Origin: Escherichia coli
Lineage (GTDB): Bacteria; Pseudomonadota; Gammaproteobacteria; Enterobacterales; Enterobacteriaceae
DNA length: 64,000 nucleotides
Direction: 5' to 3' (one strand)
Assembly: GCF_001677475.2 (NCBI RefSeq)
Contig: NZ_CP015229.1
Shown here: one piece after another, positions 49,146 through 62,557 of the stretch
Position numbering within the stretch: position 1 is the first letter of the stretch
Layout of the letters: the number at the start of each line of letters is the position of its first letter
Translations under genes and position numbers: made by a program
The notes under the pieces: generated by a model
The model's database searches: none
The model's input: the letters and a program-made list of their open reading frames with translations, nothing else
What the model was told of the DNA's origin: nothing

Positions 49146-49819
49146 AATCTGATAGACCGCGCCTTGAAAAGAGGCCAAAGCCTGCCATTTTTAGCTCAAT
49201 TCGGCGATGACCTGGATCAATCGTCCCGGCCTGCTTTTATCAACTGCATAATCAATCAAAATTACCGAAATTTCATGCATAATCACATAAATCACTTTTG
49301 CTTATCTTGTGTCAGATTTTTTTATCTCCTTATGGATTTTAGGCAAAAACAGTAGCATGAAACGTCATTACCAATTAAGGCAGTATAAAATGCTGGCTTT
49401 CTCGTCAGTTCAAGGCAGGATAAGGGTTAACACGCCTTTATGACAGTCAGGAATTGGCTGTTTCTCTAACGACGCCCCTTTTAGCCTTAATTAGAAAATC
49501 TATTTTAATTTCAGTCAATTAATAAAGAATTTTGCGCTAAAGCACATTTCTGTACCAATAAGCTTGCCATTTGACCTGTATCAGCTTTCCCGATAAGTTG
49601 GAAATCCGCTGGAAGCTTTCTGGATGAGCAGCCTGCTCATCATATTTATGCAGTAATTGAGATCCCCTCTTCACCGTATTAACCGATGCGAAAAGGACAA
49701 CAAGGGGGCGAATGCGAGGCGCGCGTATGACACGCAAACCCCGTCGCCATGCTCTTTCTGTGCCCGTGCGCAGCGGTTCGGAAGTGGGGTTCCCGCAGAG
49801 CCTGGGGGAGGTTCACGAT

Positions 49820-52800
49820 ATGTTGTACGATAAATCCCTTGAGAGGGATAACTGTGGTTTCGGCCTGATCGCCCACATAGAAGGCGAACCTAGCCACAAG
49901 GTAGTGCGTACTGCAATACACGCACTGGCCCGCATGCAGCACCGTGGCGCGATTCTCGCCGATGGTAAAACCGGTGACGGTTGCGGCTTGCTGTTACAAA
50001 AACCGGATCGCTTTTTTCGCATCGTTGCGCAGGAGCGCGGCTGGCGTTTAGCGAAAAACTACGCCGTCGGGATGCTATTCCTGAATAAAGATCCTGAACT
50101 CGCCGCTGCCGCACGCCGCATCGTTGAAGAAGAGCTGCAACGCGAAACCTTGTCGATTGTGGGCTGGCGTGATGTCCCCACTAACGAAGGCGTGTTGGGT
50201 GAAATCGCCCTCTCCTCTCTGCCACGCATTGAGCAAATTTTTGTGAACGCCCCGGCAGGCTGGCGTCCGCGCGATATGGAGCGCCGTCTGTTTATCGCCC
50301 GCCGCCGCATTGAAAAGCGTCTCGAAGCCGACAAAGACTTCTACGTCTGTAGCCTGTCGAATCTGGTGAACATCTATAAAGGTCTGTGTATGCCGGCGGA
50401 TCTGCCGCGCTTTTATCTGGATCTTGCGGACCTGCGTCTGGAATCGGCCATTTGCTTGTTCCACCAGCGCTTCTCCACGAACACCGTACCGCGCTGGCCG
50501 CTGGCGCAGCCGTTCCGCTATCTGGCGCATAACGGTGAAATCAACACCATCACCGGTAACCGCCAATGGGCGCGTGCGCGTACCTATAAATTCCAGACGC
50601 CGCTTATCCCTGATCTGCACGACGCCGCACCGTTCGTCAACGAAACCGGCTCTGACTCCAGTTCGATGGATAACATGCTGGAACTGCTGCTGGCAGGCGG
50701 GATGGATATCATCCGCGCCATGCGCCTATTAGTACCACCCGCCTGGCAGAACAACCCGGATATGGACCCGGAACTGCGTGCCTTCTTTGACTTTAACTCC
50801 ATGCATATGGAGCCGTGGGATGGCCCGGCGGGCATCGTGATGTCCGATGGTCGTTTTGCCGCCTGTAACCTCGACCGTAACGGTCTGCGTCCGGCGCGCT
50901 ACGTCATCACCAAAGATAAGCTCATCACCTGCGCCTCTGAAGTCGGTATCTGGGATTATCAGCCTGACGAAGTGGTCGAAAAAGGCCGCGTCGGGCCAGG
51001 CGAACTGATGGTTATCGACACCCGCAGTGGGCGTATTCTGCACTCGGCAGAAACCGATGACGATCTGAAAAGCCGCCACCCTTATAAAGAGTGGATGGAG
51101 AAAAACGTCCGCCGCCTGGTACCGTTTGAAGATCTGCCCGATGAAGAAGTGGGTAGCCGCGAACTGGACGACGACACGCTTGCCAGCTACCAGAAACAGT
51201 TTAACTACAGCGCGGAAGAGCTGGACTCCGTAATTCGCGTACTGGGCGAAAACGGTCAGGAAGCGGTCGGATCGATGGGCGATGATACCCCATTCGCCGT
51301 GCTCTCCAGTCAGCCGCGCATTATTTACGACTACTTCCGCCAGCAGTTTGCTCAGGTGACTAACCCGCCAATCGACCCGCTGCGTGAAGCGCATGTTATG
51401 TCGCTCGCCACCAGCATTGGTCGTGAAATGAACGTCTTCTGTGAAGCAGAGGGCCAGGCGCACCGTTTAAGCTTTAAATCGCCGATTCTGCTCTACTCCG
51501 ATTTCAAACAGCTCACGACGATGAAAGAGGAGCACTACCGCGCAGATACGCTGGATATCACCTTTGACGTCACTAAAACCACGCTCGAAGCGACAGTCAA
51601 AGAGCTGTGCGACAAAGCCGAAAAAATGGTACGTAGCGGCACCGTGTTGCTGGTGCTCTCCGACCGGAATATCGCTAAAGATCGCCTGCCGGTTCCGGCT
51701 CCGATGGCGGTTGGCGCGATCCAGACCCGTCTGGTCGATCAAAGCCTGCGCTGCGATGCCAACATCATCGTCGAAACCGCCAGCGCCCGCGATCCGCACC
51801 ATTTCGCCGTGTTGCTGGGCTTCGGTGCGACGGCTATTTATCCGTACCTTGCCTATGAAACGCTGGGCCGTCTGGTAGACACCCACGCGATTGCCAAAGA
51901 TTATCGTACCGTGATGTTGAACTACCGTAACGGCATCAACAAAGGCTTGTACAAAATCATGTCCAAAATGGGCATCTCCACCATCGCCTCTTACCGCTGC
52001 TCGAAACTGTTTGAAGCGGTCGGTCTGCACGATGATGTAGTGGGCCTGTGCTTCCAGGGAGCGGTCAGTCGCATTGGTGGGGCGAGCTTTGAAGACTTCC
52101 AGCAGGATCTGCTGAATCTCTCGAAACGTGCCTGGCTGGCGCGTAAGCCCATCAGCCAGGGCGGCCTGCTGAAATATGTGCACGGCGGCGAATACCACGC
52201 CTACAACCCGGACGTGGTGCGCACGCTGCAACAGGCGGTACAGAGCGGCGAGTATAGCGACTATCAGGAATACGCGAAGCTGGTTAATGAGCGTCCGGCA
52301 ACCACGCTACGCGATCTGCTGGCAATTACGCCGGGTGAAAACGCGGTCAACATTGCTGATGTTGAACCGGCAAGCGAACTGTTTAAACGCTTCGATACCG
52401 CTGCGATGTCTATCGGCGCGTTAAGCCCGGAAGCCCACGAGGCGCTGGCTGAAGCGATGAACAGCATCGGCGGTAACTCGAACTCCGGTGAAGGCGGTGA
52501 AGACCCGGCGCGCTACGGCACTAACAAAGTGTCGCGCATCAAGCAGGTGGCGTCAGGTCGCTTCGGTGTTACTCCGGCGTACCTGGTCAATGCTGACGTC
52601 ATTCAGATTAAAGTCGCCCAGGGCGCGAAGCCGGGCGAAGGCGGTCAGTTGCCAGGTGATAAAGTCACGCCTTACATCGCCAAACTGCGCTATTCGGTGC
52701 CGGGCGTGACGCTGATCTCCCCGCCGCCGCACCATGATATCTACTCTATCGAGGACTTAGCGCAGCTTATTTTCGACCTCAAGCAGGTTAACCCGAAAGC

Positions 52801-54280
52801 GATGATCTCCGTGAAGCTGGTTTCCGAACCGGGCGTAGGCACCATCGCGACTGGCGTGGCAAAAGCTTATGCCGATTTAATCACCATCGCAGGCTATGAC
52901 GGCGGCACCGGCGCAAGTCCGCTTTCATCGGTGAAATACGCAGGCTGTCCGTGGGAACTCGGCCTGGTGGAAACCCAACAGGCGCTGGTTGCCAACGGTT
53001 TACGTCATAAAATTCGTTTGCAGGTTGATGGCGGCCTGAAAACGGGCGTTGATATCATCAAAGCGGCGATTCTCGGCGCAGAAAGCTTCGGCTTCGGCAC
53101 TGGCCCAATGGTCGCGCTCGGTTGTAAATATCTGCGAATTTGCCACCTGAACAACTGCGCCACGGGTGTAGCAACTCAGGATGACAAACTGCGTAAGAAT
53201 CACTATCACGGCCTGCCGTTCAAAGTGACTAATTACTTTGAGTTTATCGCCCGTGAAACCCGCGAACTGATGGCACAGCTGGGCGTAACGCGTCTGGTGG
53301 ATCTGATTGGTCGCACCGACCTGCTGAAAGAGCTGGACGGTTTCACCGCCAAACAGCAGAAACTGGCGCTGTCGAAGCTGCTGGAAACCGCCGAACCGCA
53401 TGCAGGTAAGGCGCTCTACTGTACCGAAAACAATCCGCCGTTTGATAACGGCCTGCTGAACGCGCAGTTGCTGCAACAGGCGAAACCGTTTGTCGATGAA
53501 CGCCAGAGCAAAACCTTCTGGTTCGATATCCGCAACACCGACCGTTCTGTCGGCGCGTCGCTTTCAGGCTATATCGCCCAGACGCACGGCGATCAGGGGC
53601 TGGCAGCCGATCCTATCAAAGCGTACTTCAACGGCACCGCAGGCCAGAGTTTCGGTGTGTGGAACGCGGGCGGCGTGGAACTGTACCTGACCGGGGATGC
53701 CAACGACTATGTCGGTAAAGGCATGGCGGGCGGCTTAATCGCCATTCGTCCTCCGGTTGGTTCCGCCTTCCGCAGCCATGAAGCAAGTATTATCGGCAAC
53801 ACCTGCCTGTATGGCGCGACCGGTGGTCGTCTGTATGCCGCAGGCCGCGCGGGTGAACGTTTCGGCGTGCGTAACTCCGGTGCTATCACCGTGGTAGAAG
53901 GCATTGGCGACAACGGCTGTGAATATATGACGGGTGGTATCGTCTGTATTCTGGGTAAAACCGGCGTTAACTTCGGCGCGGGCATGACCGGCGGCTTCGC
54001 TTACGTTCTCGATGAAAGCGGCGATTTCCGCAAACGCGTTAACCCGGAACTGGTCGAGGTCTTAAGCGTTGACGATCTGGCGATCCATGAAGAGCATCTG
54101 CGTGGTCTTATCACCGAGCATGTTCAGCATACTGGCTCTCAGCGCGGTGAAGAGATTCTGGCGAACTGGTCAACCTTCGCCACTAAATTTGCGCTGGTTA
54201 AACCGAAGTCCAGTGATGTAAAAGCACTGCTGGGTCACCGTAGTCGTAGCGCAGCAGAGTTGCGCGTGCAGGCGCAGTAA
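49820..54280 (+). CDS. gltB: Glutamate synthase (NADPH) large subunit GltB (1486 aa)
   Basis: Translation [44 protein letters not shown]... through the FMN and glutamate-synthase C-terminal domains. Alternative in-frame upstream starts exist (49712, 49727); the propeptide is removed to expose Cys in CGFGL. Confidence 0.93.
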   Translation: [1486 protein letters not shown]

Positions 54281-55711
<1,431 letters not shown>

Positions 55712-55894
55712 GCTCTGTCCCAGCGCCGCCTCCTCAGAAAAGAGTCGGCGCTGAAATTCTCCTTTCTTTCTGGAAAGCGCCTCGCATAATCTGAAGAAAA
55801 CCAATGTAATACGCTCATCTGGATTGTTACCGGTAGATGCCCGGCGTATAGCTGATTCCATTATTCAACGCAGCGCCATATAAAGGGACAGATA

Positions 55895-57022
55895 ATGGAA
55901 TCGCTCTCAGAGAGAACCTCAACAGGCTACCAGCAAATCCACGACGGTATTATTCATCTGGTCGATAGCGCACGGACGGAAACGGTACGTAGCGTTAACG
56001 CGCTGATGACCGCGACATACTGGGAAATTGGCCGACGAATTGTCGAATTTGAACAAGGTGGCGAGGCCAGGGCTGCGTATGGTGCGCAGCTAATCAAGCG
56101 ACTATCAAAGGATTTAAGTCTAAGGTATAAGCGTGGGTTCTCTGCAAAAAACTTACGCCAAATGAGGCTTTTTTACCTCTTTTTTCAACATGTTGAAATT
56201 CGCCAGACAGTGTCTGGCGAATTAACACCATTGGGAATTCCGCAGACACCATCTGCAGAATTCCCATCGGCAAAGATTTGGCAGACGCTGTCTGCCAAAT
56301 CTTTCCCCCTGCCCTGGTCCACCTACGTCCGTTTACTTTCCGTTAAAAACGCTGACGCCCGCAGCTTTTATGAAAAAGAGACGCTCCGCTGTGGCTAGTC
56401 TGTTCGCCAGCTAGAACGGCAAATTGCGACCCAATTTTATGAGCGAACACTACTGTCACATGACAAATCAGCCATGCTGCAACAACATGCTCCTGCCGAG
56501 ACGCATATTCTTCCGCAACAGGCGATACGCGATCCTTTTGTGCTTGAATTTCTGGAGTTGAAAGATGAATACTCAGAATCCGATTTTGAGGAGGCGCTGA
56601 TCAACCACCTGATGGATTTCATGCTGGAACTTGGGGATGATTTTGCCTTTGTTGGTCGACAGCGAAGGTTACGCATTGATGACAACTGGTTTCGTGTCGA
56701 TCTGCTGTTTTTCCACCGCCGTTTACGCTGCCTGCTAATCGTCGATCTAAAAGTGGGCAAATTCAGCTATAGCGATGCCGGACAGATGAATATGTATCTC
56801 AACTACGCCAAAGAGCACTGGACGCTACCGGATGAAAATCCGCCCATCGGTCTGGTTCTCTGTGCAGAGAAAGGAGTCGGAGAAGCGCATTATGCACTGG
56901 CTGGTTTGCCTAACACCGTTCTGGCGAGTGAATATAAGATGCAACTACCTGATGAAAAACGACTCGCGGATGAACTCGTTCGAACACAGGCGGTGTTAGA
57001 GGAAGGCTATAGACGCCGTTAA
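55895..57022 (+). pseudogene. yhcG: yhcG (DUF1016, PD-(D/E)xK nuclease-fold family) interrupted by an in-frame TAG at 56396..56398
   Basis: Track fragments 55895..56398 and 56474..57022 share one frame; read-through gives a 375-codon ORF. C-terminal part carries a D...DxK-like motif (VDLLFF...IVDLKVGK). Confidence 0.8.
56201..56304. repeat. Three adjacent palindromes with a CAGAC..GTCTG core inside yhcG (a fourth lies at 57038..57062 after the stop)
   Basis: cgCCAGACAgTGTCTGGcg (56201..56219); gggaattccGCAGACaccatCTGCAGaattccc (56233..56265, one mismatch); aaagatttgGCAGACgctGTCTGCcaaatcttt (56272..56304, perfect 15-bp arms). Confidence 0.7.
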
Positions 57023-57081
57023 TTTCAGCGGTTTCGAATTCTCCAGACACTGTCTGGAGAATCTTTAAAACGAACTAAATT

Positions 57082-58414
<1,333 letters not shown>

Positions 58415-58418
<4 letters not shown>

Positions 58419-59104
58419 AGCACCGCCTTTTTCATCGCTGTGTTGTACCACTGACAAATGTGTTCAAGACGCGTAATGGCAGAACCGACCGTCACCGCCC
58501 ACGCGCCGTGGCGCATCGCATCTGCCGCCTGAGCAGGCGTGTTGTAACGCCCTTCGGCAATCACCCGACATCCGGCGTCGCTCAACGTTTTCACCAGCGC
58601 CAGATCCGGCTCTTCTGGCGTTTCAGGCGTGGTATAGCCAGAAAGCGTAGTGCCAATAATTTCGGCTCCCAGCTTTTGGCATGCCAGGCCGTCTTCCGGC
58701 GTTGAGCAGTCGGTCATCGCCAGTAAACCGTGATGGTGAATACGTGCCAGCAACGTTTCAACAGGCACCGGACGCGGGCGGTCGGTGCCGTCAATGGCGA
58801 TAATGTCCGCGCCCGCCTGCGCCAGCGCATCAACATCTTCAATATAGGCCGTGATGCGTACCGGAGAATCCTCCAGATCGCGTTTCACAATTCCAATAAT
58901 CGGCACGCTCACCACCGCACGCGTGGCTTGCAGATTTGCCACACCTTCAATACGAATGGCGACCGCGCCCGCCTGCTCTGCCGCTAATGCCATGGCAGCG
59001 ACGATTTCGGGTTTATCGAGCGGGCTGTCCGGAACCGGCTGGCAGGAGACAATCAGGCCACCGTTAGCAGCGATTTTTTGATCCAGTTGTGCAAGTAACG
59101 ACAT
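58415..59104 (-). CDS. nanE: N-acetylmannosamine-6-phosphate 2-epimerase NanE (229 aa)
   Basis: Translation [76 protein letters not shown]... Confidence 0.93.
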
Positions 59105-59151
59105 ACATCTTCCCTTAGCGAAAGGCCCGGTACAGAGACCGGGCAACAGGA

Positions 59152-60642
59152 TTAACTTTTGGTTTTGACTAAATCGTTTTTGGCGCTGCCAAACGGCACG
59201 GCACCGCTGAATGGTTTACCGTCGATAGCGTCATGAGTACGCAACGCTTCCGGGCGCAACCAACGCTGAACACGAGAAGGCATATCCAGACCAATCAGCA
59301 GGATCACCACAAATGTCAGACTGAACGAGAGCGATGCCAGCGCCGTCCCCAGATCCAGACGTTGAGCGATCAACGCGCCGATGATTGGGGCCAGTGCGCC
59401 ACCCAATGCGCCAACGTTATAGGTAAAGCCCAGGCCCGCTGCACGCTGGTCGGTATCGAAATAACCGCCAATCAGTTTCGGTAAGATCCCGGCGATCCCT
59501 TGTCCAAGCATTTGCTGGAAGAACAGTAACAGACCGAGCACCCAGACGTTTGCGCCGCCAATCGCAAATACCGGAATAATCAGCAGCTGCGAGGCCAGCA
59601 GGCTACAAACGTACGCTTTGCGGGTTCCCAGCCAGTCACCGAGGAAGCCACCTACGCAGCATCCCACCGCCGCGCCAAAGCCACTAAAGAACAGCACATT
59701 GGCGACAGTATGCGGGTTATAAGCCAGATCGGTTTTCAGATACGTTGGCAGCAGCGCCTGAATCGGCCATGAGTAGAGGAAAGCAAACAACACGACCACC
59801 ATCAGCATTACGCCCGTTGGCCAGCGTTTGCCCGTACTTTGCACCATAAAGCTGATAAAGATTGCGGCGCATAACAGCCCAAGAACAGCGACGATCGCGG
59901 CATTTTGCAGGTTACCGGCGAAGCAAAACCACAGCGCAGTAGCCGCCGCCAGTGTCATTACGATATTGGCAATGCGATGTTCACCCCGGTAGAGAATATC
60001 TACCATCGTGCGTACTGGTGCTTTACCAGCATGTTTCTCTTTCCAGTCTTCCGCTTCCGGGATGTTTTTACGCAGCCAGAGAGCAAAGATGATTGGCAAA
60101 ATGCCGATAAAGAACAGCGCACGCCAGCCCCAGACCGGAACCACCAGGCTATAGACCTGAGCGGCAACGACGGCCCCCACAGAGAAGCCGGAAATCAGAA
60201 AACCACTGGCTTTATTACGCAGATGTTTTGGCCAGCTTTCAATGACATAGGTGGCGCTGGAACCGTATTCACCCGCCATCCCCATGCCGATGACCAGACG
60301 AGCGATAAACATGGTGATGTAGCCTGGCGCAAAGCCGCAGGCCAGCGTCCCGGCCGAGAAGAGAACGATGCTGGTGACCATTGCCAGACGACGCCCGTAG
60401 CGGTCACCCATAGCGCCGAGCATCAGGCCGCCGAACCAGCGAGAGATAAAGGCTGCGGAGATCAGACTTGCCGCCTGCACCGTCGTCAGCCCGAATTCAC
60501 CTTGTACTTCGGTGAGTACCAGGGCGATTAAAACGAAATCAAAACCGTCAAGCAGATATCCCAACCAGGCAGCGGAAAATGCCCGCCATTGTGCACGATT
60601 GAGATGGCGATACCACGGGATATTCTGGGTTGTAGTACTCAT
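59152..60642 (-). CDS. nanT: Sialic acid transporter NanT (MFS, 496 aa)
   Basis: Translation [72 protein letters not shown]... Confidence 0.93.
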
Positions 60643-60750
60643 TGTGAGTCTCCCGCGGTGGGCGATGCCCACACGCTTTGGTATGAAAATTGTAGGGTAC
60701 AGATGCGTTTATTTCCCCTCACCCGGTAGGGGCGAGCGAGGGGAAACAAC

Positions 60751-61644
60751 TCACCCGCGCTGTTGCATCAACTGCTGGGCCAGCGCCTTCAGTTCTGGCA
60801 GATATTTTTCATCTACCGGTCCAAACGGTTTGCGGCACAGCGGCACAGAAACGACATCCATATAATGGAGGACAGTTTTCAGGCCGCGAAATACGCCCGT
60901 TTTGATCAGTAAATCAATGACTTTATTGCACTCAGTTTGCAGTTTCTGCGCGGTCTGGATATCGCCTTCTTTCAGCGCCTTAACAATGCCCTGATAACGC
61001 CAGCCCATGATGTTGTAGGTACTACCGATACCACCATCAGCGCCCGCCAGAAGACCAGAGGCGAAGATTTCGTCGTAACCGTTATAGAGCACCAGATCAG
61101 GATGTTCACGACGGATCTGTTCCATCTGATAGAGATCGCCAGAAGTCTGTTTCAGCGCACCGACGCCAGGCAACGTAACAAGTGTGTTGATCTGATCCAG
61201 GGTCAGTTTTACCCCACTCAGGGCTGGAATGTTGTACACCACCATCGGCAACCCATCCGCTGAATCAATAATTGCCCGATAGTGATCGCAGTGTTCTTCA
61301 AAGCTGAAAGGATAGTAGAACGGCGTAACGGCAGAGACGGCATCGAAGCCATAACGTTTAGCCGATGCCGCAAGTTGTTGGCTTTCAGCAGTGCTGACGC
61401 AACCTACGTGAGCGATGAGTTTAATCTTGCCTTTCGCCTCTTCGGCGACGATTTCCAGTACCTGTTCACGCTCGGAAAGGCTTTGTACAAAGGCTTCGCC
61501 GGTAGAACCACCCACGTATAAACCGTCGATGCCCTGCTGAATATTGAACTGAACCAGGCGACGCAGACTCGCTTTATCCAGTGCTTGTTGTTGATCAAAA
61601 GGAGTCAGGAGTGCGGCCATTACGCCACGTAAATTCGTTGCCAT
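60751..61644 (-). CDS. nanA: N-acetylneuraminate lyase NanA (297 aa)
   Basis: Translation [81 protein letters not shown]... Confidence 0.97.
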
Positions 61645-61679
61645 AAATACCTCTGAAGTGATGCTTGTCTGATAAACGA

Positions 61680-61702
61680 TATACCTTTATACCTGTTATA
61701 CC
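61680..61702 (-). promoter_or_regulatory. NanR operator: three tandem GGTATA repeats in the nanA promoter
   Basis: Minus strand reads GGTATAacaGGTATAaaGGTATA about 40 nt upstream of the nanA ATG. Confidence 0.6.
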
Positions 61703-61765
61703 AGATCAATTAAGCAACACCCCATACAGAAAGCTTATAATGCGATCTGCTTCACTAAAGTGGCA

Positions 61766-62557
61766 TTATTTCTTTTTGTTGGTGCTCTGACCGAAGGCAT
61801 GCCAGGTAGCAGAGACGCTGTTGAGATGCGATTGCAACGCGCGATCGGCTTCATCGGGATCGTGGCGGCGGATCGCGTCAACGATCGCAATATGCTGTTG
61901 ATAGCTAACGTTGTTATGCTCGTGCAGAGCCTGATCAGCCACGGTTGGACGTGCGGCGATTAGCCAGTCGAGCAGGGCAACGTGGATCGCCATGAAGATT
62001 GGGTTACCTGGGATCTCCGCCAGCACGCGGTGGAAATCAACGTCTGAGCGAATGAATGCCGCGTTGTTATCCAGCGACTGACTGTTGATTTCCAGTGCTT
62101 TTGCCAGCAAATCGATTTGCTCATCGGTGGCGTGTTCAGCCGCATAGCGCACCAGGCTGGATTCAAAGAACAGACGTAATTGTTCGAAATGGGCAATCCC
62201 ACCTGGATGAGAAAGGAAATCTTTCGCCATGCCGGAAAGCTCGCCGATGATGGTGTCCGCAGAAGGTCGAGAGACACGAGCGCGTTCGCCGTTGTTTATT
62301 TGCACCAGACCTTTGCGTTTTAACGCTGCCAGCGCTTCACGCACAGAAGGACGCCCGACGTTAAAGAACGCCATCAGTTCGCGTTCAGACGGTAATTGTT
62401 CACCTTCGCCAAATTCACGACGGCGGATCATCTGTTCCAGCTCTTCTTCCACCATTTCGGAGAGTTTTTTACGCGCCAGCGGGCGGCTGCGCAAGTTGCG
62501 ACCAATTGCAGGTGAAGAATCTTCGGTTTGCGAATCAAATGCGTTCATAAGGCCCAT
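61766..62557 (-). CDS. nanR: GntR/FadR-family transcriptional repressor NanR (263 aa)
   Basis: Translation [79 protein letters not shown]... Confidence 0.95.

Follow-up and report, generated by a model that had tools for sequence, protein, structure and literature searches.

Results

The gltD-yhcG junction and its counterpart in K-12

We analyzed a 64,000-nucleotide stretch of Escherichia coli DNA (RefSeq assembly GCF_001677475.2, contig NZ_CP015229.1), referred to here as the window. On the plus strand of the window gltD, which encodes the small subunit of glutamate synthase, occupies 54293..55711 in the ORF list (472 aa, with the TAA stop codon at 55709-55711). Its product is 99% identical in amino acid sequence to K-12 GltD by tblastn, in agreement with the annotation of the gene. 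The next ATG-initiated ORF on the same strand starts at 55895 and corresponds to the reading frame of yhcG. This leaves a plus-strand spacer of 183 bp (55712..55894), and the sequence and the ORF list agree with the first-pass annotation of the DNA on this length. The ORF listing contains no frame of at least 40 aa lying wholly within the spacer. An antisense ATG ORF of 137 aa (55448..55861, minus strand) overlaps the 3' end of gltD and most of the spacer; it is a mechanical call, and there is no evidence for its status as a gene. The conserved right-hand neighbor of the variable interval is nanQ (yhcH; 57082..57546, minus strand), identified from the ORF list and by tblastn (99%).

In K-12 the RefSeq annotation gives the order gltD-gltF-yhcA-yhcD-yhcE::IS5-yhcF-yhcG-nanQ. 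The first-pass annotation had given the same order, and gltD does not adjoin yhcG there. The window instead has the 3' end of gltD, the 183-bp spacer and the 5' end of yhcG in one contiguous piece, with no gltF-yhcADEF between the two genes. K-12 GltF, YhcA, YhcD and YhcF have zero tblastn matches in the window, and blastn against the K-12 locus detects no remnant there of the 7-kb, IS5-containing K-12 insert. Terminal inverted repeats, IS fragments and a target-site duplication are all absent from the junction, which thus does not have the features of an IS or transposon scar, and a repeat search of the spacer returns only short repeats at chance level. The ORF list, the blastn comparison and the repeat search therefore uphold the earlier description of the spacer as free of ORFs, IS remnants and obvious direct repeats.

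Alignment to K-12 defines the boundaries of the difference exactly. The two sequences are collinear through window position 55713 (ending TAAGC) and again from 55767, positions that blastn equates with 2921 and 10001 of the K-12 locus record L001; megablast places the same breakpoints at query positions 312-314 and 368. Between them lies a 53-bp segment of the window (55714..55766, plus strand), which holds the hairpin discussed below and in place of which blastn finds 7,081 bp in K-12. This K-12 block (L001 2922-10000) comprises a palindrome that we call PAL1, a 559-bp spacer and gltF-yhcA-yhcD-yhcE::IS5-yhcF. The flanks of the window are 95.8-97.3% identical to K-12 by blastn which, together with the missing gltF-yhcF block, bears out the earlier statement that the window is not from K-12. 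We refer to the contiguous junction of the window as W type and to the gltD-to-gltF junction of K-12 as K type.

A GC-rich hairpin downstream of gltD

The 53-bp W-type segment contains a GC-rich hairpin (55721..55753, plus strand), a candidate terminator whose inverted repeat arms lie at 55721-55732 and 55742-55753. The core of the hairpin is an 8-bp stem, CAGCGCCG/CGGCGCTG, formed by 55721-55728 and 55746-55753 and within the 5-11 bp range of GC-rich terminator stems, and is followed by an inner CUC/GAG helix. The loop measures 17 nt, or 9 nt if the inner 3-bp helix forms, and so exceeds the 3-8 nt of a short terminator loop. The tail after the hairpin reads AAAUUCUCC / AAAUUCUCCUUUCUUUCU, and the stem is not directly followed by a run of U. 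The first-pass annotation had recognized a stem-loop in the spacer, and the inverted repeat is indeed present, but it had been placed at about 55729..55761, 8 bp to the right of its actual position.

The suggestion made at the same time, that this stem-loop may act as the gltBD terminator, fares less well. There are grounds for it: the 8-bp GC-rich stem begins 10 nt after the stop codon and is invariant in the alignment of W-type Escherichia, the downstream sequence is T-rich overall (AAATTCTCCTTTCTTTCT), and other genera have a terminator at the same position (L016, L043 and L022), so that some 3'-end element is to be expected after gltD. Against this, no U-tract directly follows the stem, the loop is 9-17 nt long, the terminator scan makes no call at 55721-55753, and the folding energy is ordinary (z = -1.47, matched by 20 of 200 shuffles). 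The stem is the same in every W-type sequence compared and so offers no covariation on which an assessment could draw. We consider it rather doubtful that in W-type strains the hairpin serves gltBD as a functional intrinsic terminator. Judged on its sequence features, it may act on the gltBD mRNA as a 3'-end or stability element that is non-canonical and at most weak.

yhcG has a putative promoter of its own and is interrupted in the window

The 128 bp upstream of yhcG (55767..55894, plus strand) are common to the window and K-12. The alignment points to a putative plus-strand sigma-70 promoter within this region, with a -35 element TTGTTA at 55824-55829, a 17-bp spacer and a -10 element TATAGC at 55847-55852. 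Comparison of the W type with K-12 shows both hexamer blocks conserved and the intervening stretch diverged, which suggests that yhcG has its own promoter within the conserved 128 bp. The promoter scan makes no call at 55824-55852. In K-12 yhcG is reported to have its own 5'UTR, overlapped by the antisense G0-10703 (PMC7967276).

The yhcG frame (55895..57022, plus strand) covers a DUF1016_N domain and a YhcG_C PD-(D/E)XK nuclease domain. The first-pass annotation took it to be intact, but the codon at 56396-56398 is an in-frame TAG (W168*), and the window copy is therefore a pseudogene. The codon is TGG in all six other alleles compared, and the exact 61-mer containing the TAG is absent from all 5,426 complete E. 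coli genomes searched. The frame is thus not continuous, and both domains are nevertheless found when the two halves are searched against Pfam (DUF1016_N, E = 5e-36; YhcG_C, E = 4e-57). The PADLOC models for the candidate defence protein PDC-S02 match yhcG, with E = 4e-136 for the intact allele of E. coli C8. YhcG homologues are located inside BREX and type I restriction-modification (R-M) operons, consistent with the reported enrichment of DUF1016 genes beside R-M and BREX genes (PMC9881135). In the literature that could be searched we found no functional study of yhcG, DUF1016 or PDC-S02 and no experimentally demonstrated role for any member of the family, and we found no solved structure related to YhcG by sequence. 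In an AF2 model the predicted nuclease domain resembles NucS/EndoMS and Can2.

Palindromes in and after yhcG

The yhcG sequence of the window contains three tandem units spaced by 39 bp, each of which is a palindrome, and a further copy follows the stop codon. The first unit, PAL-a (56197-56223), is a perfect 27-bp palindrome of 13-1-13 form, AATTCGCCAGACA-G-TGTCTGGCGAATT. The second, PAL-b (56237-56263; AATTCCGCAGACACCATCTGCAGAATT), is imperfect. The third, PAL-c (56269-56307), is an inverted repeat with 18-bp arms, GGCAAAGATTTGGCAGAC/GTCTGCCAAATCTTTCCC, and lies just upstream of a conserved PLPW/LSW motif; it is the unit homologous to the family-wide palindrome described below. The post-stop copy, PAL-term (57037-57062; AATTCTCCAGACA-C-TGTCTGGAGAAT), begins 15 bp after the yhcG stop codon, between the convergent yhcG and nanQ genes. 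Its arms show compensatory changes relative to other strains, and its hairpin has z-scores of -4.6 and -5.3 on the two strands. K-12 and UTI89 have a further PAL copy directly after gltD. When 16 distinct PAL copies are compared, covariation with changes in both arms is seen at three arm positions, giving a score that none of 500 shuffles reaches.

No relevant Rfam family corresponds to PAL. In blastn searches it occurs at a median of two places per genome (a single site, since both strands are counted), with a maximum of five. We rejected its assignment to a dispersed repeat of the REP/BIME, ERIC or RPE-like kind, PAL being confined to one or two sites per genome. An identity of the 39-bp yhcG repeat with the MLVA locus CVN001 was likewise rejected, since CVN001 amplifies in all isolates, including those of ST131, which belongs to the lineage without yhcG.

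Alternative contents of the gltD-nanQ interval

The W-type junction, scored where at least 80% of window 55400-56300 is covered in one piece, is found in 3,139 of the 5,426 complete genomes (58%), and the K-type junction in 1,139 (21%). A third arrangement, which we term U type, has no yhcG and consists of gltD, 14 bp, a palindrome and nanQ; it accounts for 947 genomes and is exemplified by UTI89, Nissle 1917 and the type strain ATCC 11775. Roughly 200 genomes are in other states (for example an IS next to or inside yhcG, a deletion allele or an island), and all of these figures are threshold-based coverage counts in a clinically biased set of sequenced genomes. A fourth, uncounted allele is an 8.7-kb island in E. 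coli O158:H23 (L087 9313-18021; NZ_CP076709.1), which encodes SWIM zinc-finger, DUF5691, AAA ATPase, DUF5682 and VWA proteins and has no palindromes at its junctions. From the counts of the three main alleles and the additional states it follows that the stretch between gltD and nanQ is a hot spot where at least four alternative contents occur, and that the gltD-yhcG junction, as the majority state, is ordinary. The earlier view of the junction as strain-variable and accessory is correct, and the accessory polymorphism is one that was already known.

Individual records show further variation. In E. coli GF3-3 a small transposase gene directly follows PAL-c within yhcG (L003 4883-5300), and the yhcG of ESBL_DR28 is interrupted upstream of PAL-a by an element of the IS3 family (L086 9366-10677). 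One E. coli record of 354 kb that is classed as a plasmid contains a yhcG that is 99.5% identical (NZ_MG591698.1 310179-311303), and the gltD-yhcG query has one match in a plasmid record; these matches suggest a chromosomal segment within a plasmid record.

The first-pass annotation had missed the palindromes, and with them the position of most rearrangement endpoints of the locus. UTI89 keeps a single palindrome, identical to PAL-a over 28 bp, between a K-12-type left flank and the nanQ-side right flank. The yhcG truncation of E. albertii (L004 3113-3500) has a hybrid PAL-c/PAL-term palindrome at its junction, and an independent truncation in E. coli HH97 (L137) joins PAL-a to the U-type right flank. 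The divergent Escherichia lineage L005 lacks one 39-bp unit, and in the O157:H7 genome examined an 80-bp frameshifting deletion begins right after PAL-a. Most endpoints thus lie on the 27-bp palindromes in three of the states, the exception being the island allele L087. The PAL copies may act as short substrates for recombination or slippage. A palindrome-mediated inversion switch is not supported, a synthetic PAL-a x PAL-term junction being covered to at least 80% in none of the 5,426 assemblies. The residual 5' part of yhcG in HH97 contains many small deletions.

The palindromes could also be read as the borders of a cassette, consisting of yhcG and its 128-bp upstream region, that inserted at a PAL already standing between gltD and nanQ; the 8-bp sequence AATTCTCC, present at 55755-55762 and 57037-57044, would then be a duplicated left arm. 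Such an origin would agree with the presence of exactly one PAL in the empty-site alleles of UTI89 and Pseudocitrobacter, with the position of PAL-term just past the stop codon (post-stop copies exist also in L133 and L127, which are unrelated family members) and with the arrangement of AATTCTCC as a direct repeat flanking the segment. Chance alone would, however, be expected to produce an 8-bp repeat within 2 kb, the segment has no recombinase gene beside it, and the sequence to the right of PAL-term is not homologous to that on the right of PAL in Pseudocitrobacter or K-12. Moreover, the W-type empty site that the cassette predicts (hairpin, PAL and nanQ) is found in none of the 5,426 genomes, the sole full-length matches being to a U-type allele and to the HH97 deletion allele. 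We therefore regard entry as a cassette as unlikely, and prefer to see the PAL copies as substrates for rearrangement of the interval.

Outgroups and the direction of change

A GltD scan of species-representative genomes yielded 80 loci. The Escherichia outgroups among them are two, E. albertii (L004) and L005. Both outgroups have the W-type spacer with few substitutions. L005 is ~93% identical to the window and has the order gltD-yhcG-nanQ, and E. albertii has the W-type left junction followed by the truncated yhcG. Within E. coli the aligned spacer is identical in C8 and near-identical in O157:H7, as it is in L005 and E. albertii. Since the two outgroups have the same spacer, the W type is probably the older Escherichia state as well as the commonest. 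The 58% majority of the W type and its occurrence in E. albertii argue for an insertion in K-12 rather than a loss in the window. Using K-12 as the reference from which the window lacks genes, as had been done, is thus misleading.

Elsewhere in the Enterobacterales the next gene after gltD is nanQ, or sspB-sspA come immediately, and a canonical bidirectional terminator is often present. At the gltD-sspB site Enterobacter asburiae (L012 11467-17543) and E. cloacae (L013 12009-15919) have yhc-like chaperone-usher operons in the opposite orientation, whose products are 24-59% identical to K-12 GltF, YhcA, YhcD and YhcF by tblastn. This site has apparently captured fimbrial operons more than once.

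The comparison of K-12 with the phylogroup B1 strain C8 indicates how the K type may have arisen. The last ~220 bp of gltD are 99-100% identical between the two strains, and the gltB-gltD sequence further upstream is a mosaic of 93-100% identity. Identity falls to 71-79% in the 128 bp upstream of yhcG, is 93-97% at the 5' end of yhcG, and returns to 99-100% near L001 10850. Such a dip around the junction fits the import of a diverged block and not a loss in every other strain. We propose that a block made up of PAL1, the 559-bp spacer and gltF-yhcADEF, a beta-class chaperone-usher operon, recombined into K-12 and other, mostly phylogroup A strains. The import would have replaced the 53 bp at 55714-55766 and brought with it a diverged yhcG upstream region and yhcG 5' end. 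The probable route is homologous recombination which, like the direction of the change, we infer from these comparisons.

Variation is also seen over a wider region. The gltBD-yhcG-nan region (window 49400-62000) is a mosaic of 92-100% identity per 200 bp relative to C8, and its best match in a complete E. coli genome is 97.6% over 901 bp. In the ftsH-folP region, by comparison, the window matches many E. coli strains at 99.7% identity, which places it in E. coli or Shigella. The GltD protein of the window is too widespread to be diagnostic of a strain, and the six contigs that encode it are only 95.6-97.0% identical in DNA. K-12 and UTI89 are just 95.8-96.7% identical to each other across gltBD-yhcG-nan.

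The opposite polarity would have the window descend from a K-12-like ancestor that lost gltF-yhcADEF by deletion, leaving the 183-bp spacer. Deletions are frequent at the locus and often end on palindromes. In addition, the K-12-type left flank with PAL1 is ancient: the flank of K-12 and UTI89 (GAGGTAACAAT, PAL and ~40 bp) is homologous to the sequence after gltD in Pseudocitrobacter, at 78% identity over 69 bp. The flank of the K and U types is therefore old too, so that both haplotypes are old and the polarity is probable rather than proven. A simple deletion cannot, however, create the 53-bp W-specific segment, which has no K-12 counterpart. E. albertii and L005 share the spacer of the window, tblastn finds no yhc remnants in the window, and the junction-proximal sequence of K-12 is far more diverged than its surroundings, as import would predict. 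The K type, moreover, is a 21% minority and has been reported in phylogroup A only (PMC5216030). On this evidence a deletion origin of the window state is highly improbable, and import into K-12 is the account that we retain.

A possible relationship of the W-type hairpin region to the pre-PAL sequence of Pseudocitrobacter was considered and rejected, MAFFT aligning the K-12/UTI89 flank with it instead. In the Pseudocitrobacter metagenome-assembled genome (MAG; L008 11417-11617) a single PAL, AAATTTGGCAGACAGTGTCTGCCAAAT, follows gltD and is closest to PAL-c. It is succeeded by sequence homologous to that after PAL1 in K-12 and then by REP-like repeats, and yhcG is absent.

A palindrome at one position in the YhcG homologues examined

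We compared 32 YhcG homologues from plasmids and viral contigs, non-redundant at 90% amino acid identity and 30-63% identical to E. coli YhcG. In 29 of the 32, no palindrome anywhere in the gene is stronger than the one in the DUF1016_N linker, which makes up 9.5% of gene length (binomial P ~1e-26), and the remaining three homologues also have a palindrome at the homologous site. The center of the palindrome falls on codon position 1 in 27 of the 29. The peptides encoded at this point vary widely (for example CQTLSGK, GYALRSE, VSALMRQ and VVSLIRE), and the linker has a pLDDT of 46-59 in the AF2 model. All 13 arm pairs change on both sides. Pairing reaches 91.8%, against 63.5% in shuffles and 26-38% in slid registers, a figure that is inflated by the choice of rows as top palindromes; the positional result (29/32) is free of that bias. 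The sequence of the palindrome and the peptide that it encodes thus change freely while the complementarity of the arms is maintained. The family feature appears to be a palindrome with arms of 7-18 bp and a center of 1-3 nt, located in a predicted disordered linker just upstream of the LSW motif.

Mismatches are few in all. Over 14 positions per side in the 29 palindromes there are 20 G.T, 19 A.C and 28 other mismatches. The near equality of G.T and A.C shows no strand bias and, on these few mismatches, leans towards a symmetry at the DNA level rather than a strand-specific RNA hairpin. Whether such symmetry reflects a functional cis element or a neutral quasi-palindrome kept symmetric by template switching is a matter on which we take a cautious position: a functional element is possible, and we would stop somewhat short of calling it probable. 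It might, for example, be an operator, or a cruciform bound or cut by the dimeric, NucS-like YhcG nuclease itself for autoregulation or triggering. The searchable literature contains no description of this palindrome feature or of the PAL sequence.

Discussion

We consider it very likely that the locus is explained by the combination of a native W-type spacer, the import of a diverged block into K-12, a hot spot linked to palindromes, a hairpin of at most weak effect after gltD and a putative promoter belonging to yhcG itself. It is K-12 that is atypical at this locus, and exact breakpoints and frequencies can now be attached to the known polymorphism. From this standpoint, 'gltF' belongs to an accessory fimbrial operon rather than being a conserved gene of a gltBDF operon. 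Between gltD and nanQ the content is exchanged recurrently: the site may contain a candidate defence nuclease, the fimbrial operon or the SWIM/AAA/VWA island, or it may be empty. The palindromes, a side finding for which a mechanism is only proposed, are of more interest than the junction. A covarying intragenic palindrome offers a concrete handle on an uncharacterized nuclease that numerous BREX and type I R-M loci encode.

The yhc genes have been described as an accessory, cryptic beta-class chaperone-usher locus of K-12, confined to phylogroup A among 35 ETEC genomes, and the window represents the 'absent' state of that reported polymorphism (PMC5216030). Relative to earlier catalogues of yhc presence and absence, the present analysis provides the breakpoints (55713/55767), the frequencies of three alleles, the outgroup state and a signature of import. 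The yhcG of the window matches the same models and contains the same domains as the PDC-S02/COG4804 YhcG family of PD-(D/E)XK nucleases, from which it differs in being inactivated by a nonsense codon. Length polymorphism at the 5' end of yhcG is also an LSPA-6 marker used to type lineages of E. coli O157:H7 (PMC3514354). The gene is the same and the length variation falls in the same 5' region as the PAL units; the typing literature examined treats the polymorphism as a size marker and does not tie its indels to 39-bp palindromic units.

The maintenance of arm symmetry by paired changes is reminiscent of the correction of quasi-palindromes by template switching. A second likeness is to the Rickettsia palindromic elements (RPEs) of Ogata et al. 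2000/2002, which are reportedly protein-coding palindromes. Like these, the yhcG palindrome lies in frame inside an ORF, in a region of the protein that is predicted to be structurally tolerant (pLDDT 46-59). RPEs are 100-150 bp long and dispersed through many unrelated genes, whereas the yhcG palindrome measures 17-39 bp, occupies one or two sites per genome and is restricted to one homologous position and codon phase in a single gene family. Because position and codon phase are constant across the family, the yhcG palindrome was inherited with its gene, not inserted into it.
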